Of a stretch of DNA of 64,000 bases, positions 5,350-58,045 are shown piece by piece. The notes below the pieces were generated by a model. That model searched no databases. It saw nothing but the letters and a program-made list of their open reading frames with translations, and was not told the origin of the DNA. Source of the DNA: Patescibacteria group bacterium (GTDB lineage Bacteria; Patescibacteriota; Patescibacteriia; Magasanikbacterales; GWA2-37-8); contig SCQK01000013.1 of assembly GCA_004321885.1 (NCBI GenBank), positions 64,001 through 128,000 on the forward strand, given 5' to 3'. Position 1 is the first letter of the stretch. Every line of letters starts with the position of its first letter. The translations under genes were made by a program, and so were the position numbers.

Positions 5350-7202
5350 TCTAATATCGCCTTTATCCTCCGCACGCCGGCGCTCACTGCCTCTTCTTTG
5401 ATAATGCGGAATTTTCCCAGCACACCCGTGTGCTCCACGTGCGGTCCGCCGCATATTTCGCGGCTAAAACATTGCGAGTTCTCGTGGGCTTCAACTTTGG
5501 CTTGCGAGTCGCCCACGGAATAGACCTTGACTTTTTGCCCGTAACGTGCTTCAAACAATCCAATGGCCCCCAATTTTTTGGCCTGTTCCACGCTCATTTC
5601 TTCAAAAACCACCGTATAATCGCGCTTTATGGCATAGTTGACAAGTTCTTCAATTTGTGCTTTCTGATTTTCAGTCAGCTTCTCGGGATGGCTAAAATCA
5701 AAGCGCAAACGCTCGGCCGTAATATTGCTGCCGCGCTGTGTCACATGCTCGCCCAACACCTTGCGCAGGGCGGCGTGGAGCAAATGCGTGGCCGTGTGGT
5801 ATTTTATGGACATCTCGCCGGTATCAGCCAGCCCGCCCTTGAATTTTTGCTCGGCGCCGGCCCGAGAAAGCTCCTGATGCTTTTTCATTTCCTCGTTAAA
5901 TCCTTTGATATCAACACTTAATCCTTTTTCCTCCGCCAATTCTATCGTCAGTTCAATCGGGAAGCCATAACTTTGATACAGGTCAAAAGCATCTTTCGCG
6001 GAAATTATTTTTCCGCCGTCAGTCACATTGTCATTCCCCCGACTAAGTACGGGGGAATCCAGTAACTCCTCAAATTTCGCCATTCCTCGTTCAATCGTAT
6101 TCCTAAATTTACTCTCCTCTTTTGCCATTTCGTTTATCACAAACTCGCGGTTGCGTTCCACTTCCGGATAAACATCGCTAAAAATTTTGATTGTTTCCTC
6201 GGCCATGGCCGAGGAAAAATTTTCTTTTATTCCCAGCAGTCGTCCGTGGCGCACGGCGCGGCGAATCAAACGTCTCACCACATACCCCTGGTCCACGTTG
6301 CTTGGCGCTATCCCCTTGTCATCGCCCATGATCATGGTGGCGGTACGCAAATGGTCGGCGATAACGCGCATTGATTTGGTGACTTCCGCGTTTTCCACGT
6401 ATTCGCGCCCGGAAATCTCTTCAATTTTTTGTATCAAAGGCCAAAAAGTGTCCACCTGAAAAACATCGGCAAAGCCGTTTAAGGCGACCAGCGTGCGCTC
6501 CAGACCCATGCCAGTGTCCACGTTCTTTTGTTTGAGGGGCGCGTAACTACCATCAACCAGTTTATTGTACTCCATGAAAACGTCGTTCCAAATTTCCAGC
6601 CAATTGTCTTCGTCGTTTTCCGGGTTGCTCTTTTTGGGTGGAAGCTCAGACTCCCCCATCCAATAAAACATCTCCGTGTCCGGACCGCACGGCCCGGTGG
6701 CTCCGGCCGGCCCCCACCAATTATTTTCTTTCGGTAAAAAACAAATTTTGTGCTCTGGCACGCCCGCTTCTTTCCAAATTTCGGCCGATTCTTCGTCGCG
6801 CTCGGCTGTTTTGCCTCCCTTAAACACGGACACGGCCAATTTCTTCGGGTCCAGCCCCAGCCATTTTTGGTCCGTTAAAAATTCCCAACTCCACTGTATC
6901 GCTTCCTTTTTAAAATAGTCACCCAGCGACCAGTTGCCGAGCATTTCAAAAAAAGTATCGTGGCGGTTGTCCCCCACTTCGTCAATATCCTGCAAGCGCG
7001 CGCATTTTTGCGCGCTGGCCAAACGCTTGCCCTCGGGATGTTTTTCGCCCAGTAAATACGGCACCAGCGGGTGCATGCCGGCGGTGGTAAACAAAACCGT
7101 CGGATCGTTTTCCGGAACGAGCGAGGCCGACAAAATCACCTTGTGTCCTTTACTGACAAAAAAATCCAAATATTTCTGCCGCAGTTGTTTTGATATGAGC
7201 AT
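5346..7202 (-). CDS. alaS: Alanyl-tRNA synthetase, short form lacking the C-terminal C-Ala domain; contains one in-frame palindromic insert
   Basis: Class II catalytic core (FTTAGMHPLVPYLLG, FFEMLGNWSLGDYFK), editing-domain motifs HTATHLLHAALRKVLGEHVTQRGS and CGGPHVEHTG. 618 aa against about 870 typical. Insert LDSPVLSRGND is encoded by the family A element at 6030-6060. Confidence 0.85.
   Translation of the reverse strand: MLISKQLRQKYLDFFVSKGHKVILSASLVPENDPTVLFTTAGMHPLVPYLLGEKHPEGKRLASAQKCARLQDIDEVGDNRHDTFFEMLGNWSLGDYFKKEAIQWSWEFLTDQKWLGLDPKKLAVSVFKGGKTAERDEESAEIWKEAGVPEHKICFLPKENNWWGPAGATGPCGPDTEMFYWMGESELPPKKSNPENDEDNWLEIWNDVFMEYNKLVDGSYAPLKQKNVDTGMGLERTLVALNGFADVFQVDTFWPLIQKIEEISGREYVENAEVTKSMRVIADHLRTATMIMGDDKGIAPSNVDQGYVVRRLIRRAVRHGRLLGIKENFSSAMAEETIKIFSDVYPEVERNREFVINEMAKEESKFRNTIERGMAKFEELLDSPVLSRGNDNVTDGGKIISAKDAFDLYQSYGFPIELTIELAEEKGLSVDIKGFNEEMKKHQELSRAGAEQKFKGGLADTGEMSIKYHTATHLLHAALRKVLGEHVTQRGSNITAERLRFDFSHPEKLTENQKAQIEELVNYAIKRDYTVVFEEMSVEQAKKLGAIGLFEARYGQKVKVYSVGDSQAKVEAHENSQCFSREICGGPHVEHTGVLGKFRIIKEEAVSAGVRRIKAILE
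6030..6060. repeat. Palindromic element, family A, in frame within alaS
   Basis: gtcattcccccgactaagtacgggggaatcc; the reading frame continues through it. Confidence 0.7.
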
Positions 7203-9000: not shown

Positions 9001-9036
9001 ATTTCAAAAGCAGTCGCTTTGGGCGACTGCCACGAA

Positions 9037-9453: not shown

Positions 9454-9462
9454 ACACACAAT

Positions 9463-9864: not shown

Positions 9865-9908
9865 GATAAAAGTATAGCATTTTTGCAGTATTTTGCAAAT
9901 TTTTGTCT

Positions 9909-10229: not shown

Positions 10230-10275
10230 AAATTATAAATAATGGCTTTGTTCTGCCATTATTTTACTCTTACTC

Positions 10276-10304
10276 TTGACAAAAGTCAAAAAATGTGCTA
10301 TATT
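10276..10304 (+). promoter_or_regulatory. Sigma70-type promoter TTGACA-N17-TATATT upstream of the high-GC histidine-phosphatase gene
   Basis: ttgaca (10276-10281), 17-nt spacer, tatatt (10299-10304). About 190-nt AT-rich leader, then RBS AGGAGAG and ATG at 10493. Confidence 0.55.
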
Positions 10305-10492
10305 GTTTTGTTGTGGTTTATTGGAAAATTGCGCTTTATTGCGCTATTTTCCGGCTATAACGTGAGTGTGTTGTTTTTTGAAAATTTGAGGTTTCTTTGG
10401 CCAGAAGTTGAATGCGTAATGCGAATATCTTTTGTTCGTAATGCGCAGTCAACTTCCACGCCCCACCGATGGGGCACACCAAGGAGAGGAAG

Positions 10493-11140
10493 ATGAAGAC
10501 CACGGTGCTGTTCACGAGGCACGAGGACCACAAAGACCAGGTCCTCCTGCCGGACGCGGTCGAGAGAGCGCGCATGCGCGGTCTGCGCCTGCGTGAGAAG
10601 GACTACAAGATCGACCGGGTCAAGGGCTCGCCCCTGCCCCGCGCCGATGCCACCGCCACCGAGATGATGACCGGCTACGGCCAGACCACGGACATCGAGC
10701 GCGAGGCGCGCCTCGGCGACTTCAAATCCGATCCAAGGACGCCGAAGGAGGCGGTGAAGGAGCTCAAGGCGAACGCGGTGGCCAAGCACGGGGATGACTC
10801 CGACTCCAACTTGGCCAAGGAGCTCATCAACACCCCCGCCCTGCACGACCTCCTCTTCGCCCGCGCGAAGGAAGGCGCCGAGGCCCTGCTGGAGATGGCC
10901 GCCGCCAACCCGGGCAAGACCATCCTGGCCGTGAGCCACGGCGTGGCCCGCATGGAGATCGTCCTGCGCTACCTGCGGGGCGTCCGCGACACCGCGCTCC
11001 TGGACATCGTCCCGGAGCTCATCGACCGCGGCGAGGTCATCAAGCTGACCTTCGAGGTCTCGGAAGAGTGGGACGACCTCGCCGAGACGCACCCGGCGCG
11101 GGCCGAGTTCGTCTCGGCCGAGCCCCTCCCGCTCCTCTAA
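10493..11140 (+). CDS. Histidine phosphatase superfamily (phosphoglycerate-mutase-like) protein encoded in a high-GC islet
   Basis: LFTRHEDH (RHG-type motif) near the N-terminus and ILAVSHGVARMEIVL (second catalytic His). RBS ccAAGGAGAGgaagATG. Local GC about 65% against about 40% background; the minus-strand 290-aa ORF is an antisense artefact. Confidence 0.65.
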   Translation: MKTTVLFTRHEDHKDQVLLPDAVERARMRGLRLREKDYKIDRVKGSPLPRADATATEMMTGYGQTTDIEREARLGDFKSDPRTPKEAVKELKANAVAKHGDDSDSNLAKELINTPALHDLLFARAKEGAEALLEMAAANPGKTILAVSHGVARMEIVLRYLRGVRDTALLDIVPELIDRGEVIKLTFEVSEEWDDLAETHPARAEFVSAEPLPLL

Positions 11141-11262
11141 CCCCCCATCTCGCCCGCGTTCCGCGGGCAACTCCAAACACAACTCACTGACACGGCGGTA
11201 CGCATCGCGCGACCGCCCAACTCTCAATGCTTTTCAACGAAAAACATTGAGCGTTACAAAAA

Positions 11263-11293
11263 ATCCTTCGCGTTTACGAAGGATTTTTTGTTT
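11263..11293 (+). terminator. Rho-independent terminator after the high-GC gene: ATCCTTCGCGTTTACGAAGGAT plus T-run
   Basis: Perfect stem TCCTTCG/CGAAGGA followed by TTTTTTGTTTCT. Confidence 0.7.
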
Positions 11294-11319
11294 CTCAATT
11301 TTAATACCAGCGCGCTATT

Positions 11320-12828: not shown

Positions 12829-12858
12829 AATTAACTGATAAAAATTTATTCAATTCTT

Positions 12859-14082
12859 TTAAATTTTTCTCACAATCCCTTTCTCCGCGTCCACCTCCAC
12901 CATATCGCCGTCTTTTAAAACCTTAGTCGCGATTTTCGTGCCGATAATACAAGGTATACCTAACTCACGGCTGACGATGGCAGCATGCGCGGTTAACCCT
13001 CCCTCGTCGGTCACGATAGCGGCCGCCTTTTTGACCGCCGTTATCAACGACGGCGTGGTCATGGATGAAACTAAAATATCACCCTTCTGCATCTTGACCT
13101 GATCTTCCCGCGTGATAACAATTTTGACCTTGCCGCGCACCTTTCCCTTGGATGCCACGAAGCCAATAATTTTATCCACCACCGCTGTTTTGTCTTCTTC
13201 AAAATAAAGCTTAAAATAATTCTGCGCCTTTTCGCCGCTTAAAATTTTTAATTTTCTCCGGCTGATCAGCAATATATAAAATTGTTGGCGGCGTTTCATT
13301 TCGCTTTCGGGCATTTTCTTGCCACCCAAATAATCGCGCAAGCTGACCGGATCGTACCAATCCAATTCAGCCAATTCTTTTTCGTTGTTGATGACCTTTC
13401 GCAAATGATCTAATAGCTGATCGTAAAGATAAGACGACACTCTTTCCCCCATTTCGTAAAAGTAAGTGAACCATGATAAAATTTCCGCAAGCTCTTTTTC
13501 TTTGGCGGTTAATTTTAGCCGTCGTGCAAGATCCTCTCTTTTTCTAATCAATCGCGGACTAGAACAATGCAATTGGTTTAATAGCCCGACAACCGCTTTC
13601 GGCACTGATAAAGTTGATAAGACATCGTCCAGCTCGCGCGCCGATACTTTCGCCGCCAGTAATTTTTTCAGCCGCTGTGCAACAGACTGCTCACCCCAGT
13701 AGCTATAGACAATAGCGCCACGCCCATAAGCGTGATATTTCATGAACAAACTGATGTAACTCCTCAAATCTTTGCGGGTCAAATTTTTATTCTCGTACTT
13801 TCTGCCCCAGTTATAACCTTGGATTAGCAACTTAACTATAATGTCACCCAAACGAGAAATATTTTTCCCTTTAAATTCTCGCAGAATAATTTTCTGCTGT
13901 CTTTTTTTGTCCGCGGGGTCAAAGTATAACGAGGTAACTCTGCCGCGGCCGACAATCGGACTTCTGGCTATTTTCGCCCGCCCAAATTTACCAATGCTCT
14001 GCGCATAAGCAATGGTGCGAAATCCGCGATCAAGCAAAGTATTTTCACGTGTTAATTGTTTGACGTATTTGACTTTGGACAT
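12859..14082 (-). CDS. Paralog 2: unknown N-terminal domain (about 300 aa) plus C-terminal PEP-utilizing swivel domain
   Basis: ...GKVKIVITREDQVKMQKGDILVSSMTTPSLITAVKKAAAIVTDEGGLTAHAAIVSRELGIPCIIGTKIATKVLKDGDMVEVDAEKGIVRKI. Confidence 0.75.
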   Translation of the reverse strand: MSKVKYVKQLTRENTLLDRGFRTIAYAQSIGKFGRAKIARSPIVGRGRVTSLYFDPADKKRQQKIILREFKGKNISRLGDIIVKLLIQGYNWGRKYENKNLTRKDLRSYISLFMKYHAYGRGAIVYSYWGEQSVAQRLKKLLAAKVSARELDDVLSTLSVPKAVVGLLNQLHCSSPRLIRKREDLARRLKLTAKEKELAEILSWFTYFYEMGERVSSYLYDQLLDHLRKVINNEKELAELDWYDPVSLRDYLGGKKMPESEMKRRQQFYILLISRRKLKILSGEKAQNYFKLYFEEDKTAVVDKIIGFVASKGKVRGKVKIVITREDQVKMQKGDILVSSMTTPSLITAVKKAAAIVTDEGGLTAHAAIVSRELGIPCIIGTKIATKVLKDGDMVEVDAEKGIVRKI

Positions 14083-14239
14083 AAATTAAAGCTTCCCCAT
14101 AACCCCCTTTAATATAGAACCCCGAAATTTGACAAATAACGTGCACATGTTATACTGATTATGGAATTGATACCGCTTCAAATAGTCCCGTTTATCGGGG
14201 CGTCCCGCAAGGGTAAGGAGCGGTATTTTTGTTTTACTC

Positions 14240-14869
14240 CTATTTCGGCCATCTTTGCACCCAAATCTCTTTGTCTGCCACGTATTTATAATAATTCGTC
14301 CAATCCTTTTTATTTTGAACTTTTCTGCTGACAACGCCGGTGATGTAATCAGCTACCTGCAGCAAATTATTTGATTTTGAACGCTGTTGTTTTAATTTTT
14401 TTATAACTTTCTTCCCGTTCGTATTTAACCGAACGCGCAAATATTTGGCAAGACGGCTGCGAAAATCCGGCGAACCTGACTTATCAAGTATTACTGTGGC
14501 GTTATTCAAATGCGGAAGCGCGTTGTTAAAAACCATCTGGCAGGCGTATTTGTAAAACGATTCTTTGGTGATAAAACCTGGCCCCCACAATTTATTTGGG
14601 TCTTTGTCTATCACGACTGCGAAGTATATAAAGCGATACGGCTGGATGGCCGATAAAAATCTTTCTTTTATCTTATCCGAATTAAAAGAAAAATGAAATT
14701 CAAAATCGGACGGCAAATCAAGCTCTTTTCGCAATAAATTAATCCGTTGGTCGCAAGATAGGGCGTCTTCATTGTCATCAAAAATAACCAAAGAAATTAT
14801 AAAATATCTGCTGGAACCGGATTCTGTTTTACGGCCGGTATCGCCGGCTTCATCTATAAAGACGAGCAT
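14240..14869 (-). CDS. DUF3800 family protein
   Basis: MLVFIDEAGDTG... start and LLQVADYITGVV motif are characteristic of DUF3800; it sits inside the paralog array. Confidence 0.6.
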   Translation of the reverse strand: MLVFIDEAGDTGRKTESGSSRYFIISLVIFDDNEDALSCDQRINLLRKELDLPSDFEFHFSFNSDKIKERFLSAIQPYRFIYFAVVIDKDPNKLWGPGFITKESFYKYACQMVFNNALPHLNNATVILDKSGSPDFRSRLAKYLRVRLNTNGKKVIKKLKQQRSKSNNLLQVADYITGVVSRKVQNKKDWTNYYKYVADKEIWVQRWPK

Positions 14870-14879
14870 AACTGTTAAT

Positions 14880-16361
14880 TCAAATTTTCTTCACAATCCC
14901 CTTTGTCGCATCCACTTCCACCATGTCGCCGTCTCTGAAAACCTTAGTGGCGATTTTCGTGCCAATCACGCAGGGAATACCGAGTTCGCGCGAGACGATA
15001 GCCGCATGGCAGACAATGCCGCCCATATCAGTAACTATCGCCGACGCCTTTTTCATGGCCGCCACGATTTCCGGTATGGTCATTTCCGAAACCAACACAT
15101 TTCCACTTACCATTTTTTTCATATCCTCTATGGTATTTACAATCGTTACTTTCCCTTTGGCCGCGCCCGGAACCGCGGTTTGCCCCCGCAGTTCTTGAAC
15201 TGATAAATCCACTTCTTCCTCACGAGCCATATTCATTTTTGACATTACGTATCTCGCTTCTTCGCCAACAATAAACTTGGATCCATTGGCGTCCACATAT
15301 AGTAAACTATATTTCCAACGTTCATTTAATTCATCCGCGTCGCACTGCCCGCTTCTAATCGCAGAAGGAACTTCTTGTGGCAAAAAATATCGCGCTTGAC
15401 GAATTGAAATAAGCAATCTTTTTGCTACTTCCCGCAGTATTTTATCAAGCGCATAAAATCCTAAAAATTGGTGCTCTTTGCTCCATGCCTTTTGATAAAC
15501 AAGGTCTTTGGTAACGCGAAATAAATGCTTGTGTTTTTCATCAATTTTTAAATTATCAAACCAGGCGTTTTGTTTTTTTTCAGCTTCAAAAAACTGATTT
15601 TTCTGACGCAAAATTTCTTGCTCAATATCGGTCCCAGCTTCTATAATCTCCTGAATATGCTTTACCACATCCTTCTCTGTCCAAGTCGGCCCTTCACAGG
15701 CAAAGGGCAAAAAACAATACTTCCGCGCATGCGCCGCAATTTTTTCCTCCCCAACGGATAATTGAATTTTGCCTTCCACAACTTCCTTCGCCAGCTCATA
15801 AAGTTCCAAATGTTCCTGTGTACCCAAAGCCGGCTTTGTCAGCGTGAGTAAATCAGCCAAAACAAGAACGGCATCTATATCAGGATTAAACTTTTTTAAA
15901 TAGTTCAATAAATATATTCCTAATTGTTCAAACGGAATTTCCAAAAGCCAACTCGGAACACGATATAAGTGTAATTCCGTCTGTAACGGCAACAGTTGTT
16001 CGTAAATTCGCGCGAGTTCTTCGTTGGATAACTTTGATAAATCACTCTCAATAATTTTCCAGGCATAATTTCTAAGCTGCGGTAAAATTTTATCTGATTT
16101 TACATGCATATCATCAATGAGCCGGGGATTTTCCACAATTGCTTCTAAAGTTTTTTTACCGGCCACTATCCATTCATTGCGAATATAGAATAACTTTGTC
16201 GCGCCGTTTTCATACAAAGGAAGGCTGTGTGCCACATCGGCAAGCCCCAGCTTGCTCAATTCGCTTGTCATGGCGCGAAAAGGCGGCTCCAATGTAATGG
16301 GAGGATACTGATACAACTTCTCAATCATTATCCATTCTTTTCTTAACAATTCTTCATTCAT
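14880..16361 (-). CDS. Paralog 3: unknown N-terminal domain (about 390 aa) plus C-terminal PEP-utilizing swivel domain
   Basis: ...GAAKGKVTIVNTIEDMKKMVSGNVLVSEMTIPEIVAAMKKASAIVTDMGGIVCHAAIVSRELGIPCVIGTKIATKVFRDGDMVEVDATKGIVKKI; 4-nt overlap with paralog 4. Confidence 0.75.
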   Translation of the reverse strand: MNEELLRKEWIMIEKLYQYPPITLEPPFRAMTSELSKLGLADVAHSLPLYENGATKLFYIRNEWIVAGKKTLEAIVENPRLIDDMHVKSDKILPQLRNYAWKIIESDLSKLSNEELARIYEQLLPLQTELHLYRVPSWLLEIPFEQLGIYLLNYLKKFNPDIDAVLVLADLLTLTKPALGTQEHLELYELAKEVVEGKIQLSVGEEKIAAHARKYCFLPFACEGPTWTEKDVVKHIQEIIEAGTDIEQEILRQKNQFFEAEKKQNAWFDNLKIDEKHKHLFRVTKDLVYQKAWSKEHQFLGFYALDKILREVAKRLLISIRQARYFLPQEVPSAIRSGQCDADELNERWKYSLLYVDANGSKFIVGEEARYVMSKMNMAREEEVDLSVQELRGQTAVPGAAKGKVTIVNTIEDMKKMVSGNVLVSEMTIPEIVAAMKKASAIVTDMGGIVCHAAIVSRELGIPCVIGTKIATKVFRDGDMVEVDATKGIVKKI

Positions 16362-17836
16362 ATTTTTCTCACAACCCCACTTGTCGCGTCAACCTTCACC
16401 ATATCGCCGTCTTTGAGTACGGAAGTGATTTTTTTCACGCCCACCACGCAGGGAATTTTAAATTCGCGCGCCACAATGGCCGCATGGCAAGTGATGCCGC
16501 CGTCCTCCGTCACGATAGCCGAGGCGCGTTTCATAGCCGGCAACATCGCCGGATAAGTCGTGAGCGCCAACATAATATCTCCTTTTTCCACCTTATCCGC
16601 GTCTGTTAACGATAGAACAACTTTTACTTTGCCTGAAACAAAACCCGGATACGCGGTGGCGCCCTTAAATCCGTCTTCAACATTTAATTTTATTTCTTCA
16701 ATATCCAAGCCGGCTATAATCGCGTCGGCCTCTTTGCCGTAATAATACTTTGTTCCGCTTTCAGTCGCTTCAATCACGCAATGCTTAATTCTCTCATTTA
16801 TTAAATCAATGTCCAATTTGTCACGCAATAGAGCGTTTTCCATTTCGTCCGTCAAAAAATGATTCGCTTGTTTATGCGATATATTCAATCGCTTGGCAAT
16901 TTCTTTGGTGAGCATGTCCAAAACATAGTGCCCATGCCAAATACAATATTTTCTGAGATCCTTAAGCCAAATAATCTCGCGGGCGATGGCGAACAATCGC
17001 GCGAGCTGCGGGGGCAAGTTGATTTCGGAAATTACTTTATTTTGTTCCGCGATGAGTTTCTCGTAGCGTTCTTTTTCTTCTTTGAGCATTTGGTCCGGGT
17101 CAGTTACGCGAGGCAGGGCTTCCTTAACCTGCTCTTCATAATATTTCAAATCATAAGCCGGCCCGATATAGCCGTATGGCGTCCAGCGCCATTTTTGCCA
17201 ATGCTTTGTTATTAATTCTTTGTACTGGATTCCCGCTTTCGCGGGAATGACAACGGCCTTAAGCAACTCCAAAAAATCCAATTGCTCCAACTGGACAAAA
17301 TTCTGTTTAGCCGGAGTGGTAAGCAGAACAAAATATTCTATTGTTTTTACCGGATCATCTATGCCTAAACTTTTTAAATGTTCTCCTAATTTTTGCTTTA
17401 AATACTCCGAAAAAATCATGCCGTCGCTGTCCACAAACCAAGTGGTGGCGATTGATGGAAGATGACCTTGCTCGGTAAGCCATAAAAGCGTTTTGTAGTA
17501 ATCAAAAAGCTCGGCATTGTTTAGCGCGCCAAAATCTTTTCCCACCAAACTTTGAGCGTAATTAAAATAATCCCAATTTAATTTTTCGGTTCGCGCATGC
17601 AATTCCTCTGCCCACTGCGGCTCGGTAATAATTTTTTCCGCAATCCATTTCACCGTCGTTTCTATTACTTCAACCGGCACATACGCCGTATCCCTGTCGT
17701 TTCTATAATCTTGATACCAAACAGTAAATAATTGTTTGCCATTCTTTTTTGGAATATGCGCAAAAATCCCTTGGGGGTAATAGCCCAGCATGTTAAAATT
17801 CACGTCGCGGATATCAAAATTTATTCGCCATTTCAT
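16358..17836 (-). CDS. Paralog 4: unknown N-terminal domain (about 390 aa) plus C-terminal PEP-utilizing swivel domain
   Basis: ...ATAYPGFVSGKVKVVLSLTDADKVEKGDIMLALTTYPAMLPAMKRASAIVTEDGGITCHAAIVAREFKIPCVVGVKKITSVLKDGDMVKVDATSGVVRKI. Confidence 0.75.
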   Translation of the reverse strand: MKWRINFDIRDVNFNMLGYYPQGIFAHIPKKNGKQLFTVWYQDYRNDRDTAYVPVEVIETTVKWIAEKIITEPQWAEELHARTEKLNWDYFNYAQSLVGKDFGALNNAELFDYYKTLLWLTEQGHLPSIATTWFVDSDGMIFSEYLKQKLGEHLKSLGIDDPVKTIEYFVLLTTPAKQNFVQLEQLDFLELLKAVVIPAKAGIQYKELITKHWQKWRWTPYGYIGPAYDLKYYEEQVKEALPRVTDPDQMLKEEKERYEKLIAEQNKVISEINLPPQLARLFAIAREIIWLKDLRKYCIWHGHYVLDMLTKEIAKRLNISHKQANHFLTDEMENALLRDKLDIDLINERIKHCVIEATESGTKYYYGKEADAIIAGLDIEEIKLNVEDGFKGATAYPGFVSGKVKVVLSLTDADKVEKGDIMLALTTYPAMLPAMKRASAIVTEDGGITCHAAIVAREFKIPCVVGVKKITSVLKDGDMVKVDATSGVVRKI

Positions 17837-17838
17837 AT

Positions 17839-18882
17839 TTATCCGAAGTAGTTTTTCACCGCGAATTCAAATTGCTGGACAAATAATTCCTTAAAGTAGC
17901 GCAAACTATTTTGTTCGTAAAATAAAAGCAACGCCTTCTTGTATTCGGCGCTATCAACGCTTCTAAACGACAAAGGACACCAGTCATGCGCCAAGAGAAT
18001 CGCATTGCCCAAAATTCTGCCTGTTCTTTTATTTCCATCCACGAACGGCTGAATATATGAAATCATCGCCGCCGCGATTATGGCCTTGATTATCGGTTGC
18101 TCCTCTGTATTTACCGCGGAAATCATTTTTTCCATCGCTTCTTTTATTTGGAATTGGTTGTCTATCGGCTTATAATTTGTGCCGACAATACCCACTACAA
18201 TCTTCCTGTAATCATCCGTCACGCCCAAATCTTTTATCAACAAAGAATGCAGGGCGCGTATCAGCGCGGCGGTCGGTTTCTTGAATTTATTTTTATTTTT
18301 CAAAACAAAATCAAGCGCGTATTTATGATTCAATATCATCGTCGCCTCCGCTTTAGTGTGCCCTTTCGCCTCTTTCATTTCCTTTAACAATACTTCCGTA
18401 TCCAATAACGAATAAGTATTACCTTCAAGTTCAGATGATTTCCAGCTCAATTCAATCAAAAGTCGCTCTAATTCTTTTTGAGCGACATCGACCGCCATTT
18501 TGTCTGTTTTTTGTTGATACGCCTTGTTGCGCTTTTCTAAATCTTTTAATTCTTCCTTGTTAAACAAGCCGGATAAATGGTCAAAAATTTCCCAGTCAAA
18601 TCTGTATTTTATTTTTCTTTCATCCACCGGAACCGCAAAATAATCCGCGGCATTAACATAACGCAGAAGCGGAGTTTTAATTTTTGACGAATATGTGACA
18701 CTGCGAGCCTTGCCTCTCTTTTCTATCTGTCCGATCGAGAGTAAAATTTCCAATTCACGCAGGATTGTCGGTTTTGACAATCTGTCAAATTTACCCGCTA
18801 ATCCTTTAATAAGTTCGGCCGCTGTTACCTGTTCATTAGCCTGTACAAATTCCAAAATCGCTTTTTGACGTTTTGTAAGCAT
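17839..18882 (-). CDS. Fic/DOC family protein with N-terminal winged-HTH; the core motif is degenerate (QPFVDGNKRTGR instead of HPFxDGNGRxxR)
   Basis: MLTKRQKAILEFVQANEQVTAAELIKGL... (wHTH); ...AAAMISYIQPFVDGNKRTGRILGNAILLAH carries Gln where the catalytic His belongs and Lys in place of the second Gly. Confidence 0.7.
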   Translation of the reverse strand: MLTKRQKAILEFVQANEQVTAAELIKGLAGKFDRLSKPTILRELEILLSIGQIEKRGKARSVTYSSKIKTPLLRYVNAADYFAVPVDERKIKYRFDWEIFDHLSGLFNKEELKDLEKRNKAYQQKTDKMAVDVAQKELERLLIELSWKSSELEGNTYSLLDTEVLLKEMKEAKGHTKAEATMILNHKYALDFVLKNKNKFKKPTAALIRALHSLLIKDLGVTDDYRKIVVGIVGTNYKPIDNQFQIKEAMEKMISAVNTEEQPIIKAIIAAAMISYIQPFVDGNKRTGRILGNAILLAHDWCPLSFRSVDSAEYKKALLLFYEQNSLRYFKELFVQQFEFAVKNYFG

Positions 18883-19004: not shown

Positions 19005-20186
19005 TCAAGCAATCACTCCCCCGCCCAAACATTCACCTTTAAGATAAAATACCGCGAACTGACCCGGGGTGACGGCGCGTTGGGGGTGAGTGAAAGTAAC
19101 TAAAGGGAGGGAAACAGTGCATCTCTGCAAAGGTTGACGGTGACGCAGGCGCACCTGGCATTTTAGCGGGAAATTGGGTGTGTTTCCACTTATCCAATTT
19201 ACGTCTTTGACCCTTGCTTCCATACTGTACAGCATATCGCTTTTCTCGTCGCCGACAATCAGTTCGTTCTTTTTTATATTCTTACCGACAACAAAGAGAG
19301 GCAACGCGCTGGATTCCCCCGTACTTAGTCGGGGGAATGACAAACTGATACGTTGGCCGATGGTGTAAAACGCCAGGCCATCGTGCTGGCCCACGACTTT
19401 ACCCCTCTCTCGCCACCGCCGCGAGGCGGGGCCCCGCCGTGGCGGTGGCTCTCCCCTTGTAAAGGGGAGAGAGAGCACTATGTTCCCGGGTTTGAATTTT
19501 ATCTTTTTCATCAAAAATTCTTTCATCGGCACTTCGCCGATGAAACAAATGCCCATGCTTTCTTCTTTTTCCGCCGTGGGCAAGCCGAATTTTTTTGCCA
19601 GGGCGCGCACCTGTGGTTTGGCATACTCACCGATGGGAAACAAAACGTGGCGCAGTTGTGCTTGAGATAATTGATTCAAAAAATATGTTTGGTCTTTATT
19701 GAGATCTTTTGACTGCAAGAGGTGCAGAACCCCACCCCCCTTTCGTTCCCCCTTTATTAAGGGAGGAAGAAACGCGTAGTGTCCAGTCGCTAATTTATCA
19801 AACCCTAACGCACGGGCTTTATCCAGCCAGGCGCCAAACTTGATGAATTTATTGCACAAAACATCCGGATTGGGCGTGCGGCCGGCCTTGTACTCGCTAT
19901 ACATGTAATCCAAAACATCGCGCTTGTATTTGCGCGTAAAATCCAGCTTCAAAAGTTTAATGCCCAGTTTGGCGGCCACGCGCAAGGCGTCGCGATAATC
20001 GCCGGTCCAACAGCGCGATCCCACCCCCCCTTCGCCCCCCCCTCTGGCATGAGGGGATATTTTCTCATCATAGTTCACCATGAACGCGCCGCTTACGTTA
20101 TATCCTTGCTTAACCAAAAGAGCGGCGGCAACGGACGAATCCACGCCGCCGGACATGGCGACTAAAATTTTTTGCTTTTTTTTCAT
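19005..20186 (-). CDS. mnmA: tRNA-specific 2-thiouridylase MnmA, carrying four in-frame palindromic-element inserts
   Basis: ILVAMSGGVDSSVAAALLVKQGYNV (PP-loop), GRTPNPDVLCN, NKDQTYFL, GLPTAEKEESMGICFIG. Non-homologous inserts ISPHARGGGEGGVGSR, PPLIKGERKGGGV, LPFTRGEPPPRRGPASRRWRERGKVVG and SLSFPRLSTGESSA map onto elements at 20022-20057, 19736-19776, 19395-19475 and 19311-19341. Confidence 0.85.
   Translation of the reverse strand: MKKKQKILVAMSGGVDSSVAAALLVKQGYNVSGAFMVNYDEKISPHARGGGEGGVGSRCWTGDYRDALRVAAKLGIKLLKLDFTRKYKRDVLDYMYSEYKAGRTPNPDVLCNKFIKFGAWLDKARALGFDKLATGHYAFLPPLIKGERKGGGVLHLLQSKDLNKDQTYFLNQLSQAQLRHVLFPIGEYAKPQVRALAKKFGLPTAEKEESMGICFIGEVPMKEFLMKKIKFKPGNIVLSLPFTRGEPPPRRGPASRRWRERGKVVGQHDGLAFYTIGQRISLSFPRLSTGESSALPLFVVGKNIKKNELIVGDEKSDMLYSMEARVKDVNWISGNTPNFPLKCQVRLRHRQPLQRCTVSLPLVTFTHPQRAVTPGQFAVFYLKGECLGGGVIA
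19311..19341. repeat. Palindromic element, family A (reverse orientation), in frame in mnmA
   Basis: ggattcccccgtacttagtcgggggaatgac is the reverse complement of the alaS copy. Confidence 0.7.
19395..19475. repeat. Compound palindromic element, family D type (…CTCTCCCCTTGTAAAGGGGAGAGAG), in frame in mnmA
   Basis: cccctctctcgccaccgccgcgaggcggggccccgccgtggcggtggctctccccttgtaaaggggagagagag; nested inverted repeats. Confidence 0.6.
19736..19776. repeat. Palindromic element, family D type (CCCCCTTTATTAAGGGAGG), in frame in mnmA
   Basis: ccacccccctttcgttccccctttattaagggaggaag. Confidence 0.55.
20022..20057. repeat. Poly-C/poly-G palindromic element in frame in mnmA
   Basis: cccaccccccccttcgccccccccctctggcatgagggg. 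Confidence 0.5.
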
Positions 20187-20929: not shown

Positions 20930-20984
20930 GGGTCGGTAGTTCAACTGGTTAGAGCATCCCGACTGAGTCGGGAAAGTTGCGGGT
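20930..20984 (+). pseudogene. tRNA-Asp-like 5' fragment with the anticodon arm replaced by the palindrome TCCCGACTGAGTCGGGA, truncated in the T-stem by the GIY-YIG ORF
   Basis: GGGTCGGTAGTTCAACTGGTTAGAGCA is identical to positions 1-26 of the intact tRNA-Asp at 21251. Then the 17-nt palindrome, AAGTTGCGGGT, and the sequence diverges into ATGGAGG (start of the GIY-YIG ORF). Confidence 0.6.
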
Positions 20985-21245
20985 ATGGAGGTAATTTTAT
21001 ATTATATTTACAGTAAAAAACTGAATAAATACTACTTAGGAAAAACCAATGATTTGGAGCGACGTTTTATAGAGCATAATAACGGTGAAGAAATTTTTAC
21101 CAGAACTGGTATTCCATGGAAATTAGTTGGATTTATTAAAGCCAGCGCGAAGATAATTAGTAAATTAGAGTATAAACTAAAAAAAGCAAAAAATCCAAAA
21201 TACGTTTATTGGTATTTCAATCAACACGGAACTGTATTGGAATAA
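20985..21245 (+). CDS. Small GIY-YIG nuclease (COG2827/YhbQ-Slx1-like) nested in the tRNA-Asp locus
   Basis: MEVILYYIYSKKLNKYYLGKTNDLERRFIEHNNGEE... matches GIY-x10-YLG-x-T-NDLERR-x3-H-N of the GIY-YIG (URI) domain; 86 aa. Confidence 0.7.
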   Translation: MEVILYYIYSKKLNKYYLGKTNDLERRFIEHNNGEEIFTRTGIPWKLVGFIKASAKIISKLEYKLKKAKNPKYVYWYFNQHGTVLE

Positions 21246-21250
21246 TGAGC

Positions 21251-21324
21251 GGGTCGGTAGTTCAACTGGTTAGAGCACTGCCCTGTCACGGCAGAAGTTG
21301 CGGGTTCGAGTCCCGTCCGACCCG
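21251..21324 (+). tRNA. tRNA-Asp (anticodon GTC)
   Basis: GGGTCGG-TA-GTTC-AACTGGTTA-GAGC-A-CTGCC-CTGTCAC-GGCAG-AAGTT-GCGGG-TTCGAGT-CCCGT-CCGACCC-G. Cloverleaf with U33, A37, anticodon GUC. Confidence 0.85.
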
Positions 21325-21345
21325 CTTATTATTCCATCAAAGCAA

Positions 21346-21406
21346 GCTGGTTAGAGCATCCCGACTGAGTCGGGAAAGTTGCGGGTTCGAGTCCCGTCCG
21401 ACCCGC
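21346..21406 (+). pseudogene. tRNA-Asp-like 3' fragment (D-loop to 3' end) with a palindrome replacing the anticodon arm
   Basis: AGCTGGTTAGAGCA-TCCCGACTGAGTCGGGA-AAGTT-GCGGGTTCGAGTCCCGTCCGACCCGC; lacks acceptor and D-stem 5' strands. Together with the 20930 fragment it reconstructs one variant tRNA. Confidence 0.6.
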
Positions 21407-34071: not shown

Positions 34072-34083
34072 ATAAATTAATTA

Positions 34084-55201: not shown

Positions 55202-58045
55202 TTACTGGCCGTGACAGCGCTTGTATTTCTTCCCGCTGCCGCAAGGGCAAGGGTCGTTGCGGCCCACCACTTTGCCGGCCTCGTCGCGCACTTTTTTCCC
55301 GGCCGGCGCGGCGCCGTTGTCGCTGGTCTTGCTGGCCCCGCTAAACATCAGATTCCCCGCCTGCATCACCGACGGCGCTATCTGTATTCCCAAATTTACT
55401 TTATAAACCAAATACACCACTTCTTTTTGAATGTAATTAAGCAGTTCGTTGAACATCCGGTAGGTTTCTTTTTTGTATTCCACCAGCGGGTCGTGCTGGG
55501 CATAGCCGCGCAGGCCAATGCCGGTGCGCAAATAATCCACGGCCACCAAATGTTCCACCCACAGATTGTCTATGGCGCGCAGCAATACTTGTTTTTCTAT
55601 CTCGGCCATCATCTCGGGCGGGGCTTGTTTGACCAGCAGTTCCTCGTATTTATACTTGGCCGTTTCTATCAAAAATTCTATGAGTTGCGTCCTAATCGTA
55701 ACATCATCAACCCGCCCGCCCACCGGCGGGGCGCCAAATTCTCCGATTTTTTTCTTTTCATCGTCAGACAGCGGGAAAATGGTCGTCATTGTTTCGGCAA
55801 TTTCTTTCACATTCCAGTCACTGCGGTCTTCGGCGTTGGTATGGAACGAAACCACCTCTTCAATTTCCTGTTCTATCATTTCCAAAATCATGACGCGCAA
55901 ATTTTTTACCCCCTCTTTCGTCTCCCCCTTATCAAGGGGGAGAGAAGCGGTGGACGTCTCCGCCATATCACGAGAGAGAGAAGCGGTTGATTCAAAAGCG
56001 CGCAATACCTCGCGCCGTTTGCCGTAAATCACCTCGCGGTGCTTGTTGAGCACGTCATCGTACTCCAGCAAATGTTTGCGCGTGTCAAAATGCAAACCCT
56101 CCACTTTGCGCTGGGCGCTTTCTATAATGCGCGTAATCATCCCCTGCTCTATGGGCATGTCATCTGGCACTTTAAGGGCGTTCATTACCCCGCGTATTCT
56201 GTCGCCGGCAAAAATACGCATCAGGTCGTCTTCGGTGGAAAGGAAAAATTGCGACTGCCCCGGGTCGCCCTGGCGCCCGCTGCGGCCGCGCAACTGGTTG
56301 TCTATACGCCGGCTCTCGTGGCGCTCGGTGCCCAGCACAAACAAACCGCCGGCCGCGCGCACGCGCCCGGCTTCTTCGGGTACAGGCGGATTACCGCCCA
56401 AAATTATATCCACTCCCCTGCCGGCCATGTTGGTGGCCAGGGTCACGCGCCCGGGCTGGCCGGCCTGCGCGATTATCTCGCCCTCGCGCTCATGATTCTT
56501 GGCGTTTAGAATTTCATGCGCTATTCCCTCTCTTTGCAAATGCAAACTCAAGGCCTCGTTTTTCTCCACTGATACCGTGCCTATCAAAACCGGCTGGCCC
56601 TTGGCCTGTAATTCTTTTACCATCTGGGCGATGGCCTTGTGCTTGGCCTCTTCGGTTTTATAAATCCTGTCCGGAAAATTCGTGCGCTGGCTGGGTTTGT
56701 TCGGCGGAATTACCACCACTTCCAGTTTGTAAATTTTGCCGAACTCTTCGGCCTCGGTGACGGCCGTGCCGGTCATGCCCGACAGCTTTTCGTACAAACG
56801 GAAATAATTTTGAAAAGTAACCGTGGCCATGGTCTGACTTTCATGTTGAATGACCACGTTTTCTTTGGCTTCTATGGCCTGATGCAAGCCCTCGCTATAG
56901 CGGCGGCCCGGCATTTTGCGGCCGGTAAATTCGTCCACTATGAGCACCTCGCTGTTTTCCACGATATAGTCGCGGTCGCGCAAGAAAAGCGTCTGCGCCC
57001 GCAAAGCCTGCTCCACGTGGTGCACGGTACGCACCCCGCCCTCGGCGTAAATATTGTCCACGCCCAGCCATTTTTCCATTTTAGCGATGCCGGCTTCGGA
57101 AAGCGTGGCCGAGCGCATTTTTTCGTCTATGTTAAAGTCCTCGTTTTCTTTCAAGCGGCGCACCAGCTCGGCGAATTTGTAATACATGTCGGCCGCTTTT
57201 TCGGCCGGCGCGGAAATAATCAAGGGGGTGCGGGCTTCGTCTATTAAAATGGAGTCAACCTCGTCCACGATGGCGTAAAAAAACGGCCGCTGTACCATCT
57301 CGCTCAAATTTTGCACCATGTTGTCGCGCAAATAATCAAAGCCATATTCGTTGTTGGTGCCATAAGTGACGTCGCAGCCGTAGGCCTCTTGGCGCGAGCA
57401 GGGTTCCAAAAATTCCGTTTCCACTTTGTACATTCCTTTGGCGTCGCGTTCTTTGTCTGCTTCACTGCCCTCCTGTAACCCCACCCCCTGCCACCACACC
57501 AAAGATTTTGGTGTGGTGGCCTGCCCATCCCCTAATAGGGGAGGGGTTTTTGCGTAGCGAAAAGAAACACCAAGCTGTTGAATCACGCCCACGCTCAATC
57601 CCAAAGCATCATATATCTGCCCCATCCACACAGCGTCGCGTTTGGCCAAATAATCATTCACAGTCACCACGTGCACTCCCCTGCCGGCCAAGCCGTTTAG
57701 ATACACAGGCAAGGTAGCCACCAGGGTTTTGCCCTCGCCAGTGCCCATCTCAGCGATAGCGCCGCTATGCAAAGCCATGCCGCCCTTTAGCTGGACGTCA
57801 AAATGGCGCATACCAGTCAAACGTTTTGATGTTTCGCGCACCACGGCAAACGCCTCGGGCAAAATATCGTCCAGGGTGGCGCCGTCGGCCAAACGCTTTT
57901 TGAACTCATCGGTTTTGCCCCGCAACTGTTCCAAACTCAAAGACGCCATCCCGCTTTCCAGGGCATTGATTCTTTCCACGAGCGGCTTGTATCCGGCAAT
58001 CACTTTCGCATTCGGGTCGCCAAAAATTCTGCTAAAAAAAGACAT
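55202..58045 (-). CDS. secA: Preprotein translocase ATPase SecA with in-frame palindromic inserts
   Basis: MSFFSRIFGDPNAKVIAGYKPLVERINALE, GEGKTLVATLPVYLNGLAGRGVHVVTVNDYLAKRD, HQAIEAKE, TNMAGRGVDIILGG, C-terminal zinc motif CPCGSGKKYKRCHG; inserts PPLLGDGQATTPKSLVWWQGVG (57481-57546) and ASLPLDKGETKE (55921-55944). ATG at 58043-58045. Confidence 0.9.
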   Translation of the reverse strand: MSFFSRIFGDPNAKVIAGYKPLVERINALESGMASLSLEQLRGKTDEFKKRLADGATLDDILPEAFAVVRETSKRLTGMRHFDVQLKGGMALHSGAIAEMGTGEGKTLVATLPVYLNGLAGRGVHVVTVNDYLAKRDAVWMGQIYDALGLSVGVIQQLGVSFRYAKTPPLLGDGQATTPKSLVWWQGVGLQEGSEADKERDAKGMYKVETEFLEPCSRQEAYGCDVTYGTNNEYGFDYLRDNMVQNLSEMVQRPFFYAIVDEVDSILIDEARTPLIISAPAEKAADMYYKFAELVRRLKENEDFNIDEKMRSATLSEAGIAKMEKWLGVDNIYAEGGVRTVHHVEQALRAQTLFLRDRDYIVENSEVLIVDEFTGRKMPGRRYSEGLHQAIEAKENVVIQHESQTMATVTFQNYFRLYEKLSGMTGTAVTEAEEFGKIYKLEVVVIPPNKPSQRTNFPDRIYKTEEAKHKAIAQMVKELQAKGQPVLIGTVSVEKNEALSLHLQREGIAHEILNAKNHEREGEIIAQAGQPGRVTLATNMAGRGVDIILGGNPPVPEEAGRVRAAGGLFVLGTERHESRRIDNQLRGRSGRQGDPGQSQFFLSTEDDLMRIFAGDRIRGVMNALKVPDDMPIEQGMITRIIESAQRKVEGLHFDTRKHLLEYDDVLNKHREVIYGKRREVLRAFESTASLSRDMAETSTASLPLDKGETKEGVKNLRVMILEMIEQEIEEVVSFHTNAEDRSDWNVKEIAETMTTIFPLSDDEKKKIGEFGAPPVGGRVDDVTIRTQLIEFLIETAKYKYEELLVKQAPPEMMAEIEKQVLLRAIDNLWVEHLVAVDYLRTGIGLRGYAQHDPLVEYKKETYRMFNELLNYIQKEVVYLVYKVNLGIQIAPSVMQAGNLMFSGASKTSDNGAAPAGKKVRDEAGKVVGRNDPCPCGSGKKYKRCHGQ
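57481..57546. repeat. Two adjacent palindromes in frame in secA: GCCACCACACCAAAGATTTTGGTGTGGTGGC and CCATCCCCTAATAGGGGAGGGG
   Basis: Read directly; 11-bp and 7-bp perfect stems. Confidence 0.6.

Follow-up and report, generated by a model that had tools for sequence, protein, structure and literature searches.

Putative selfish stem-loop repeats in four loops of a patescibacterial mnmA gene

The mnmA gene at 19005-20186 (minus strand) of the window, by which we mean the whole 64-kb stretch of DNA that was analyzed, is probably the resident and functional mnmA of a Magasanikbacteria-like member of the Patescibacteria, in which four length-tolerant loops have each taken up a GC-rich stem-loop repeat. 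We assign this reading a probability of about 0.8. The four inserts, S1 to S4 in order from the N-terminus, are best understood as selfish repeats tolerated in permissive loops; the identity and dispersal of the elements, their positions in loops, their turnover in relatives, and the intact core are shown by the data, whereas activity of the enzyme, neutrality or near-neutrality of the inserts, and the way in which the repeats move are inferred.

The gene encodes a tRNA 2-thiouridine(34) synthase, expected to thiolate U34 of tRNA Glu/Lys/Gln, of 393 codons plus a stop, and the ORF listing and translation contain no internal stop. All three MnmA Pfam domains are found in the product: PF03054 (2.3e-71, residues 5-217), and PF20259 and PF20258, which represent the central PRC-barrel and the C-terminal beta-barrel tRNA-binding domains. 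The best PDB matches are MnmA/TrmU (E 3e-84). The initial annotation had described the core motifs SGGVDSS, GRTPNPDVLCN, NKDQTYFL, and GICFIG as intact, and this description holds for all four, in addition to the three domains and the uninterrupted reading frame. SGGVDSS occupies residues 12-18 of the N-terminal ATP-pyrophosphatase domain and conforms to the PP-loop pattern SGGxDS. The catalytic residues D108 and C111 (in PNPDVLCN) and C214 (in GICF) do not vary among 120 homologues and line up with the PDB chains, and we take them to be the counterparts of D99, C102, and C199 in E. coli MnmA. An MnmA with D-x-x-C plus a second Cys is of the DxxC-C type (PMC8584467). An identical protein is present in NCBI as a Patescibacteria MnmA, and its source is a MAG.

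Four inserts in four loops

S1 (20016..20060, minus strand, residues 43-57) is ATATCCCCTCATGCCAGAGGGGGGGGCGAAGGGGGGGTGGGATCG encoding ISPHARGGGEGGVGS and belongs to the TGCCAGA-loop subtype of a repeat family that we call family B. Within the catalytic domain it occupies the loop that links strand 30-37 to helix 61-74, and it ends two residues before the invariant C59, at a site that is empty in most of the 120 homologues. S2 (19728..19769, minus strand, residues 140-153) is of the TTAATAA-loop subtype of the same family, with CTTCCTCCCTTAATAAAGGGGGAACGAAAGGGGGGTGGGGTT encoding LPPLIKGERKGGGV, and is found between strands 131-133 and 156-158 of the catalytic domain. The stems of these two inserts are short (5-6 bp, with only 6 bp in S1) and their folding is no better than that of shuffled sequences (z -0.8 for S1 and -0.1 for S2), so their standing as elements comes from sequence family. 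On this basis we class S1 and S2 as elements by family membership and not by palindromy.

S3 (19398..19475, minus strand, residues 238-263) is a 78-nt composite encoding LSLPFTRGEPPPRRGPASRRWRERGK. It consists of a family-B hairpin, CTCTCCCCTT-TAC-AAGGGGAGAG, a nested hairpin, GCCACCGCC...GGCGGTGGC, and the family-B tail GAGAGAGGGGTAAA, and contains the inverted repeats I5, I7, and I13. Its predicted fold is a three-way junction with a dG of -52.2 kcal/mol (z -4.7), and none of 200 shuffles was equally stable. The central domain, which binds the tRNA D and anticodon stems, has this insert at the turn of its first beta-hairpin; the site is empty in 91 of the 120 homologues, and the S3 peptide has 8 basic residues and a net charge of about +6. 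S4 (19310..19342, minus strand, residues 282-292) is a 33-nt CGTC/TGTC-tagged REP that reads (L)SFPRLSTGES, in a central-domain loop ahead of strand 297-303. Its layout is TGTC / ATTCCCCCG / ACTAAGTA / CGGGGGAAT / CCA, where ATTCCCCCG and CGGGGGAAT form a perfect stem of 9 bp (z -2.8 vs shuffles).

The four extra peptides proposed in the initial annotation were thus all found, at four separate loops, while some of the details given there need revision. When the modal length at each site in the 120 nearest homologues is used as the baseline, the net gains at S1 to S4 are +10, +8, +21, and +6/7, or about 46 aa in total relative to the modal CPR homologue. The figure of ~70 extra residues given earlier is the sum of the quoted peptides and overstates the gain because these peptides include residues that replace native loop. 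Each insert had been ascribed to a different element, yet a single family accounts for S1, S2, and the outer part of S3, and only S4 is distinct. The palindromic character claimed for all four is strong in S3 and S4 but weak in S1 and S2. That mnmA is the densest case in the window is roughly true per kb, with 4 sites in 1.18 kb compared with 3 in 1.06 kb for the PPDK_N gene. Perfect stems of at least 8 bp number 3 in mnmA vs 0.23 expected from 300 dinucleotide shuffles (p about 0.003), and stems of at least 9 bp number 21 in the window vs 1-8 in shuffles.

A 10-bp perfect hairpin at 19521-19545 was considered as a fifth element and rejected. It lies inside conserved coding sequence for CFIGEVPMK, is not an insertion, and has a counterpart in just 2 of 30 relatives; codon choice accounts for it.

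Two dispersed families of elements

Family B elements are about 40 nt long and share a plan of C-rich arm, loop, G-rich arm, and G-tract tail. In addition to S1, S2, and the outer part of S3, which also holds a nested GCCACC...GGTGGC hairpin, an alignment (A3) places S1 and S2 with seven other copies that come from further window genes and from different sites within the mnmA of relatives. In this alignment S1 groups with S1 and S3 of the homologue P0009 and with S3 of P0004. The S3 composite has a sister at 57480..57545 (minus strand) inside secA, again with a B hairpin, a GCCACC...GGTGGC hairpin, and a tail, GGGGGTGGGGT. Nine of 10 family-B copies are co-oriented with transcription. In one intergenic copy the tail places a GGAGG 13 nt ahead of the start codon at 34071.

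S4 is identical at 35 of 35 positions to a copy at 6028..6062 (plus strand) inside alaS, a minus-strand gene in which it is read as DSPVLSRGND. This copy shows that the family is dispersed and has been copied recently. The tagged pattern GTCATTCC..GGAATCC occurs 8 times in the window, where 0 are expected, and TGTC starts are found at S4 and at 3407, 6030, 17251, 42449, 43563, and 53506. The exact S4 element was also found on 7 metagenome contigs with unrelated flanks, in some cases inside miaA-like and uvrD-like ORFs. Exact S4 copies are present in samples from the Hainich aquifer. The 5' boundary of S4-type elements is sharp in 10 copies with unrelated flanks, and the loci of relatives, like the metagenome contigs, often contain plus/minus pairs, with S4 itself being a single unit.

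At least 20 further in-frame copies are present in housekeeping genes of the window, including alaS, cysS, dnaX, secA, ligA, ppsA, and dus, and none of the >20 in-frame copies in the window breaks a reading frame. The same elements are read in several frames and in many unrelated proteins. The sequence CCCCTTNNNAAGGGG has 6 copies vs 0.17 expected. No flanking direct repeats of the kind left by target duplication were found at 10 independent copies. A Pfam search of window ORFs of at least 90 aa, covering all but five near the 3' end, found no RAYT/IS200, Y1 or other transposase and no retroelement. Among viral contigs the S4 core had 0 matches and the family-B core 1, which gives no sign of a phage vector. 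In the window, Rfam at gathering thresholds returned tRNAs only, and the elements match none of its known RNA families.

Turnover of the inserts among homologues

Insertions across the 120 homologues cluster at the four loops filled in the query, at a fifth site near residue 361, and at the N-terminus, with minor sites elsewhere. Within one clade at 85% nucleotide identity, some members carry S1 (+33 nt) and S3 (+27 nt) and others have these sites empty. The homologue P0036 is one with empty sites. For the query itself, the nearest relative among the matches listed has 64% amino acid identity and there is no near relative with empty sites, so its insertion boundaries are placed by analogy with these relatives. 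Family B also occupies the S2 site in P0009 and P0087, and sister lineages hold an AT-rich palindrome there.

P0009 carries family B at the same three sites as the query, and inheritance of S1-S3 from a common ancestor was considered and rejected. A neighbor-joining tree of 329 core columns does not group the query with P0009, and the sisters of P0009 are without inserts; this pattern argues in favor of recurrent insertion as the source of the shared occupancy.

A different explanation is that the extra segments, mainly S1 and S2, are ordinary lineage-specific loop expansions that arose by slippage or by drift to G-rich codons. The S1, S2, and S4 loops do vary in length across MnmAs, including those of E. 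coli and S. pneumoniae, and the short stems and non-significant folding of S1 and S2, as well as the many non-palindromic inserts in relatives, would fit such an origin. We nevertheless consider it quite unlikely, since the ~40-nt plan of S1 and S2 recurs in seven other copies that can be aligned with them, their local GC content and G-runs are sharply unlike the rest of the gene, and filled and empty sites in near relatives differ by discrete blocks of 27-33 nt. For S3 and S4 this origin is excluded by the exact repeats.

It has similarly little probability that the inserts were selected for a function, whether as RNA or DNA hairpins or Shine-Dalgarno-like G-tracts acting in translation, mRNA stability, or replication, or as basic loops that bind tRNA. 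Such a role would agree with the very stable junction formed by S3 and its basic peptide in the tRNA-binding domain, with the orientation bias of family B and the GGAGG tail ahead of the start codon at 34071, and with a strong preference of families for sites (8 B and 0 T elements at S3, 1 B and 20 T elements at S4, among homologues). Against it, the inserts are distributed patchily, even among sister lineages, and the occurrence of the same elements in several frames of unrelated proteins argues against a role at the protein level, as has been argued for intragenic REPs (PMC3733652). Preferences of orientation and site can also arise from a selection filter or from microhomology at the target.

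Conservation of the core and predicted structure

The question raised by the initial annotation was whether the elements are tolerated in surface loops or the gene is decaying. If mnmA were a decaying pseudogene, the insertions would mark relaxed selection on a function that has been lost or that a second copy provides. A load of four or five insertions in 1.2 kb is unusually dense, S3 and S4 lie in the tRNA-binding domain, and the search for a second intact mnmA, the sign of decay named in the initial annotation, covered the 64-kb window, where none was found. Decay is nonetheless very improbable. The gene retains 393 codons free of frameshifts and stops despite four insertions, where preservation of the frame by chance would have a probability of (1/3)^4. 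The query keeps 73 of the 73 columns that are invariant in the 120 homologues, catalytic residues included, and matches the consensus at 156 of the 160 columns with a conservation of 90% or more. This score of 97.5% ranks 84 of 120 and is inside the range of the homologues (94.4-100%, median 98.1%). As many as 28 of 119 homologues are even longer than the 393 aa of the query, and the essential genes secA, alaS, cysS, dnaX, and ligA carry the same elements. Synteny is conserved as well, with the order zf_Tbcl_2-mnmA...alaS-gtrA-rpsM-rpsK-rpsD-rpoA-rplQ-rplM-rpsI common to the query and the relative L002.

An AF2 model of the product (pLDDT 88.7, pTM 0.87) keeps the MnmA fold, and a Foldseek search with this model gave TM 0.88-0.89 and an rmsd of 2.5-3.0 A to 2HMA/2DET/2DER. 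The only low-confidence blocks are 41-60, 141-150, 241-260, and 281-290, which correspond to the inserts, and 211-220, the catalytic lid, which is known to be mobile. Values of pLDDT within the inserts are 64-70 for S1, 65 for S2, and 53-54 for S3. All of the inserts fall in coil between conserved secondary-structure elements, and the disruption of core secondary structure that the initial annotation proposed to look for is not seen in the model. The central domain of MnmA recognizes the groove of the tRNA D and anticodon stems (PMC8584467). S3 and S4 lie in this domain and S3 is strongly basic, and they may conceivably have a functional effect, either good or bad.

Reading frame, conservation, and model together support tolerance in loops, the first of the two outcomes named above, and we suggest that mnmA should be annotated as an intact gene and not as a pseudogene. 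An artefact of assembly or binning, with chimeric joins at repeats, is conceivable in a MAG, since assemblers may be misled by short repeats, but it is extremely unlikely here, because colinear mnmA in the same frame continues on either side of each insert and the same families occur at the same loops in independent NCBI, ENA, JGI, and Logan assemblies.

How the loops may have been filled

Under the preferred reading of tolerated selfish repeats, short GC-rich stem-loops from repeat families dispersed in the genome would have entered four loops of mnmA. Since about 90% of the genome is coding, repeats would land mostly in genes. Selection would then remove copies that shift the frame, add a stop, or strike a structured or catalytic part, and the survivors would be in-frame, stop-free additions of Gly/Arg/Pro/Ser-rich loop sequence that are translated. 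The elements could move by trans-mobilization by a separately encoded enzyme, or by microhomology-mediated copying that replaces part of the native loop.

A bolder possibility, which we hold to be rather doubtful, is that ultra-short coding stem-loop repeats are active throughout the Patescibacteria and are directed to particular loop-coding sequences instead of inserting at random. The occurrence of family B at S3 and of TGTC-REPs at S4, the third hairpin nested specifically within family-B units, and the replacement of part of the native loop would point to copying guided by hairpins or microhomology. If true, such copying without a classical transposase would continually remodel surface loops of MnmA, SecA, aminoacyl-tRNA synthetases, DnaX, and LigA in these reduced genomes.

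Comparison with known repeat systems

Coding palindromic repeats have so far been regarded mainly as an oddity of Rickettsia and a small number of REP-rich genomes. In the uncultured CPR/Patescibacteria genome studied here the units are much shorter and locally much denser, and we found no description of such elements in CPR/Patescibacteria in a literature search that included their characteristic peptides. Repeated colonization of the same enzyme loops in >100 related lineages maps, by natural means, the loops at which MnmA and other core enzymes tolerate insertions. It also accounts for part of the odd length variation of CPR proteins and of their low-complexity Gly/Arg/Pro stretches, features that can mislead annotation, alignment, and structure prediction.

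S4 is closest to the CGTC-tagged REP superfamily, described by Di Nocera, De Gregorio & Rocco (2013), which counts Neisseria dRS3 and R. conorii RPE-4/RPE-6 among its members (PMC3733652). Published members have a CGTC tag (variants TGTC, CCTC), a stem of 8-9 bp, a loop of 4-5 nt, and a 3' tail CCA, and were surveyed in 5 phyla that do not include Patescibacteria (PMC3733652). S4 shares with them the unpaired 5' TGTC tag, a G+C-rich stem that opens with A-T and then T-A and is 9 bp long, and the unpaired 3' tail GGAAT/CCA(G), which is present in S4 and in every exact copy. Intragenic in-frame copies are a further likeness among the relatives of S4, and head-to-head pairs in relatives' loci and the absence of a transposase from the 64-kb window may be others. 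The loop differs, being 8 nt in S4 (ACTAAGTA) and 7-8 nt in its subfamily, and in the copy at 3407 the stem is 11 bp and the loop 3 nt, while the copy at 17227-17251, with an 8-bp stem and a GAAA loop, agrees with the published loop length. Intragenic density is also far above that of published CGTC REPs. By sequence features S4 fits the superfamily and extends it to a new phylum, and the lack of an evident transposase partner in the 64-kb window sharpens the question of how CGTC-type elements move.

In Rickettsia, the RPEs are palindromic repeats inserted in-frame in unrelated housekeeping genes and translated (Ogata et al. 2000, 2002, cited in PMC10969869), and are regarded as compatible with fold and function. 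The classic RPE-1 type is about 100-150 bp and encodes a conserved peptide of 30-50 aa, and the 1.27-Mb R. conorii genome has 44 RPE integrations in metabolic genes, nearly half of them in-frame within ORFs. Like RPEs, the window elements are translated in-frame palindromes in unrelated housekeeping genes of a small, host-dependent genome; unlike RPEs, they are units of only 33-45 nt (78 nt for the composite) encoding 11-26 aa, with >20 in 64 kb and four in mnmA. Their relation to RPEs is based on the equation of CGTC-1/-4 with RPE-6/-4 (PMC3733652). With the fold kept in the predicted model, the mnmA inserts can be regarded as the CPR counterpart of the Rickettsia coding palindromes.

GTAG REPs and REPINs, which are associated with RAYT, an IS200/IS605-like Y1 enzyme, are likewise short hairpins with an unpaired conserved tag and often form inverted pairs. 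The GTAG tag is absent from both families described here, the window is without RAYT, and GTAG REPs are mostly extragenic; the RAYT system offers a plausible model for mobilization in trans. Intragenic MITEs such as Coxiella QMITE1/2, ERIC, and BOX (PMC10969869) are also non-autonomous and can fuse in-frame with host ORFs, but they are 70-500 bp long and usually AT-rich, with terminal inverted repeats and target-site duplications, in contrast to the GC-rich elements of 33-45 nt in the window.

At the protein level, the query shares the three-domain fold, PP-loop, D-x-x-C, and second Cys with the solved MnmAs of E. coli and S. pneumoniae (2DER/2DET/2DEU, 2HMA). Relative to solved structures, the gains at S1 to S4 are +10, +6/7, +23, and +2, and the total excess is 18-25 aa, with 393 aa in the query vs 375 aa in the best-matching chains. 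The S1 and S2 loops are longer than their solved counterparts, and S3, which adds 23 aa to the first hairpin of the central domain, is the sole clean insertion relative to all solved MnmAs.

An intact MnmA with four inserts in variable loops

The mnmA gene (19005-20186, minus strand) is an uninterrupted frame of 393 codons whose product contains the three MnmA domains recognized by Pfam, PF03054 (2.3e-71), PF20259, and PF20258, and among solved structures it is closest to the MnmA/TrmU enzymes from S. pneumoniae and E. coli (E values 3e-84 to 6e-73). Every MnmA motif quoted in the initial annotation was found in the translation, and D108, C111, and C214 make it a DxxC-C type enzyme (type according to PMC8584467). 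An identical NCBI entry, from a contig of 175,928 bp, is labeled MnmA of "Patescibacteria group bacterium", and the next-nearest relative in a protein search is only 64% identical. The best 120 matches are all CPR proteins of 337-448 aa, those with named sources belonging to Magasanikbacteria or Patescibacteria, and 28 of 119 homologues are longer than the protein studied here.

In an alignment of the 120 homologues, the four peptides quoted initially as extra segments coincide exactly with four length-variable regions, here S1 to S4, all encoded on the minus strand. In the catalytic domain, S1 (residues 43-57, 20016-20060) lies between strand 30-37 and helix 61-74, and S2 (residues 140-153, 19728-19769) between strands 131-133 and 156-158. 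The central domain holds S3 (residues 238-263, 19398-19475) at the turn of its first hairpin and S4 (residues 282-292, 19310-19342) in the loop preceding strand 297-303, with domain limits taken from PMC5372745. The 70 extra residues claimed earlier are the summed lengths of the quoted peptides; relative to modal site lengths among the 120 homologues the net gain is about 46 residues (S1 +10, S2 +8, S3 +21, S4 +6/7). Only S3 is a clean insertion against the solved structures (+23), the other differences being +10 for S1, +6/7 for S2, and +2 for S4, at sites where E. coli and S. pneumoniae already have longer loops.

The choice posed in the initial annotation, between inserts tolerated in surface loops and a decaying gene, comes down on the side of loops around an intact core, and several observations speak against decay. 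The frame stays open across all four insertions, no invariant column of the 120-sequence alignment is lost, and the consensus residue is present in 156 of 160 columns conserved at ≥90% (97.5%, versus 94.4-100% with a median of 98.1% in homologues). An AF2 model (pLDDT 88.7, pTM 0.87) superposes on 2HMA, 2DET, and 2DER with TM scores of 0.88-0.89, and low confidence is limited to the four inserts and residues 211-220, a known mobile lid (PMC5372745). We found no second mnmA within the 64-kb window. A gene order shared with a relative (zf_Tbcl_2, mnmA, then after an interval alaS, gtrA, rpsM, rpsK, rpsD, rpoA, rplQ, rplM, and rpsI) indicates that this mnmA is the resident orthologue. Since the central domain recognizes the groove of the tRNA D and anticodon stems (PMC8584467) and contains both S4 and the strongly basic S3, an effect on tRNA binding is possible.

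Relative to locus L002 of this relative, alaS and mnmA are separated by roughly 12 kb of accessory genes (7220-18882). These encode a Fic protein, DUF3800, two HepT/MNT toxin-antitoxin pairs, and a stand-alone PPDK_N protein, along with five ORFs that have a PEP-utilizers mobile domain at their end (9909-10226, 11320-12828, 12859-14082, 14880-16361, and 16358-17836).

Two repeat superfamilies and a nested unit

The initial annotation assigned each segment to a different palindromic element. Instead, a single family (family B) accounts for S1, S2, and the outer portion of S3, S4 belongs to another superfamily, and one further unit is nested in S3. Family B units are about 40 nt long with the plan TCCCCCC-TT-loop-AAGGGGAG-(5-6 nt)-GAGGGGT, and their hairpin core CCCCTTNNNAAGGGG occurs 6 times versus 0.17 expected. 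Copies in ppsA, secA, and the PPDK_N gene align with S1 and S2 (alignment A3), as do two intergenic copies and the inserts that homologues P0009 and P0004 carry at S1, S2, and S3. Alone, S1 and S2 are weak palindromes (z -0.8 and -0.1), so they count as elements by family membership and not by symmetry.

S3 joins a B hairpin, whose stem is 10 bp, to a further hairpin GCCACCGCC...GGCGGTGGC and a B tail, and it folds as a three-way junction (-52 kcal/mol, z -4.7). A composite built to this plan is also found in secA (57480-57545), and in both genes a GCCACC...GGTGGC hairpin sits between the hairpin and tail of the B unit (mnmA 19412-19449, secA 57490-57520). In homologue P0005 one and the same extra peptide (RPARNALACEAGG) is nested within the family B inserts at both S2 and S3. 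These nested units suggest a second element that targets family B. The S1-S4 elements match no family in Rfam, and we found no described family corresponding to family B and its nested composite.

Intergenic family B copies at 34078-34122 and 2722-2766 point toward the downstream gene; in the first, the G-rich tail at 34099 is AAGGAGGGGTAA, and an SD-like GGAGG lies 13 nt ahead of the ATG at 34071. The region upstream of rpoA is arranged similarly. A 5'-UTR module may be the origin of family B or a second role for it.

S4 reads TGTC, ATTCCCCCG, ACTAAGTA, CGGGGGAAT, and CCA in that order. With one neighboring base included at either end, it matches a copy within alaS (6028-6062) at 35 of 35 positions; an S4-like copy upstream of rpsD has a loop shorter by one base. 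The window contains 8 occurrences of the tagged pattern GTCATTCC..GGAATCC, versus 0 in 100 shuffles. The exact 33-nt element was also found in seven metagenome contigs (L088 251-282, L089 1419-1450, and L083-L087), six of them from Hainich-labeled samples, and the flanks of these copies bear no relation to the window. Two of these copies lie in-frame, in other reading frames, within miaA-like (DSPVLSRGND) and uvrD-like (VIPPTKYGGIQ) ORFs, and an inverted partner often follows 10-12 nt after the metagenome copies, giving a head-to-head dimer.

CGTC REPs have 8-9 bp stems with A/T pairs first, a CCA tail, and a tag "changed to TGTC" in many repeats; they form head-to-head dimers, include intragenic units, lack a dedicated transposase, and in the case of CGTC-1/-4 have been equated with Neisseria dRS3 and Rickettsia RPE-6/-4 (PMC3733652). 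S4 shares the unpaired TGTC tag, the AT-starting stem, and the CCA tail but has a loop of 8 nt versus the published 4-5 nt, a length that other copies in the window do have (e.g., 17227-17251). S4 is a member or variant of the CGTC REP superfamily. Relatives' loci contain many TGTC-type units in plus/minus pairs. Four tagged units, two plus and two minus, occupy the short spacer directly upstream of mnmA in relatives (L002 9825-9980, L003 9768-9923).

Turnover among homologues

We found no near relative with empty sites, the closest homologue being 64% identical, and the evidence for turnover comes from one clade of four homologues with 85% nucleotide identity (P0009, P0087, P0098, and P0111; alignment A2). 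In this clade two members have an insert at S1 (+33 nt) and two lack it, one of the four has an insert at S3 (+27 nt), and at S2 two have a family B unit and the remaining pair an AT-rich palindrome unrelated to it. About 15 nt adjoining the S1 gap are also replaced, so these events resemble insertions that replace part of the loop. Insert carriers among the 120 homologues are scattered over a neighbor-joining tree, and insertions recur at S1-S4, a fifth near residue 361, and the N-terminus, with minor others. Site preference is marked (S3, 8 B-type and 0 TGTC-type; S4, 1 B-type and 20 TGTC-type), in counts based on peptide motifs and uncorrected for kinship among homologues.

Dispersal and possible origin

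At least 20 further in-frame copies of these families lie inside other genes of the window, including alaS, cysS (2), dnaX (2), secA (2 sites), ligA, ppsA (2), the PPDK_N gene (3), dus, and gtrA. Pfam matches are stretched as a result; the SecA_DEAD match covers 431 residues over 289 profile positions (secA, 55202-58156). In absolute terms secA may therefore contain a greater amount of inserted sequence than mnmA, although only two element sites were identified in it (55905-55945 and 57480-57545). Perfect stems of ≥9 bp number 21 in the window versus 1-8 in shuffles. One perfect 10-bp hairpin (19521-19545, RNA fold z -5.1), in the conserved CFIGEVPMK coding sequence of mnmA, was rejected as an inserted element, being present in only 2 of 30 relatives and a by-product of codon choice; it is useful as a negative control.

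The repeats are dispersed and recently copied, and intragenic copies always keep the frame, occupy length-variable coil regions, and turn over between close relatives. The window is about 91% ORF on a crude map, and with a genome of similar density repeats would mostly land in genes, where selection would spare just those copies that keep the frame, bring no stop, and fall in permissive loops. Reading GGN, AGG, or CGG codons from the G-rich strand would yield flexible Gly/Arg-rich peptides. Candidate copying routes are a HUH-type enzyme mobilizing tagged hairpins in trans, by analogy with REP/RAYT, and microhomology-guided copying. No transposase, RAYT, or retroelement genes were detected by Pfam among the window ORFs.

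The principle of in-frame coding palindromes is already established: Rickettsia RPEs are an example (PMC10969869), and intragenic REPs are known in several phyla (PMC3733652). In a non-exhaustive literature survey we found no published description of such repeats in CPR/Patescibacteria. The local insert density is striking, and the comparative view of recurrently colonized loops is informative.

Intergenic hairpins with a CCCGACT(T/A)AGTCGGG core and A/T-rich flanks (675-699, 61449-61485, and 62025-62055; e.g., AAAACAGTCCCGACTTAGTCGGGACTGTTTT) resemble bidirectional intrinsic terminators, so ordinary terminators may share the REP core. Within 20931-21401, a tRNA-Asp (21251-21325) preceded by a small GIY-YIG ORF (20985-21245) is flanked by 5' (20931-20984) and 3' (~21340-21401) fragments of a near-identical tRNA-like gene, in which a hairpin TCCCGACTGAGTCGGGA replaces the anticodon arm, its core CCCGACT.AGTCGGG as in the S4-type repeat. 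The GIY-YIG/tRNA cassette looks to have inserted into, or duplicated, the tRNA-like gene.
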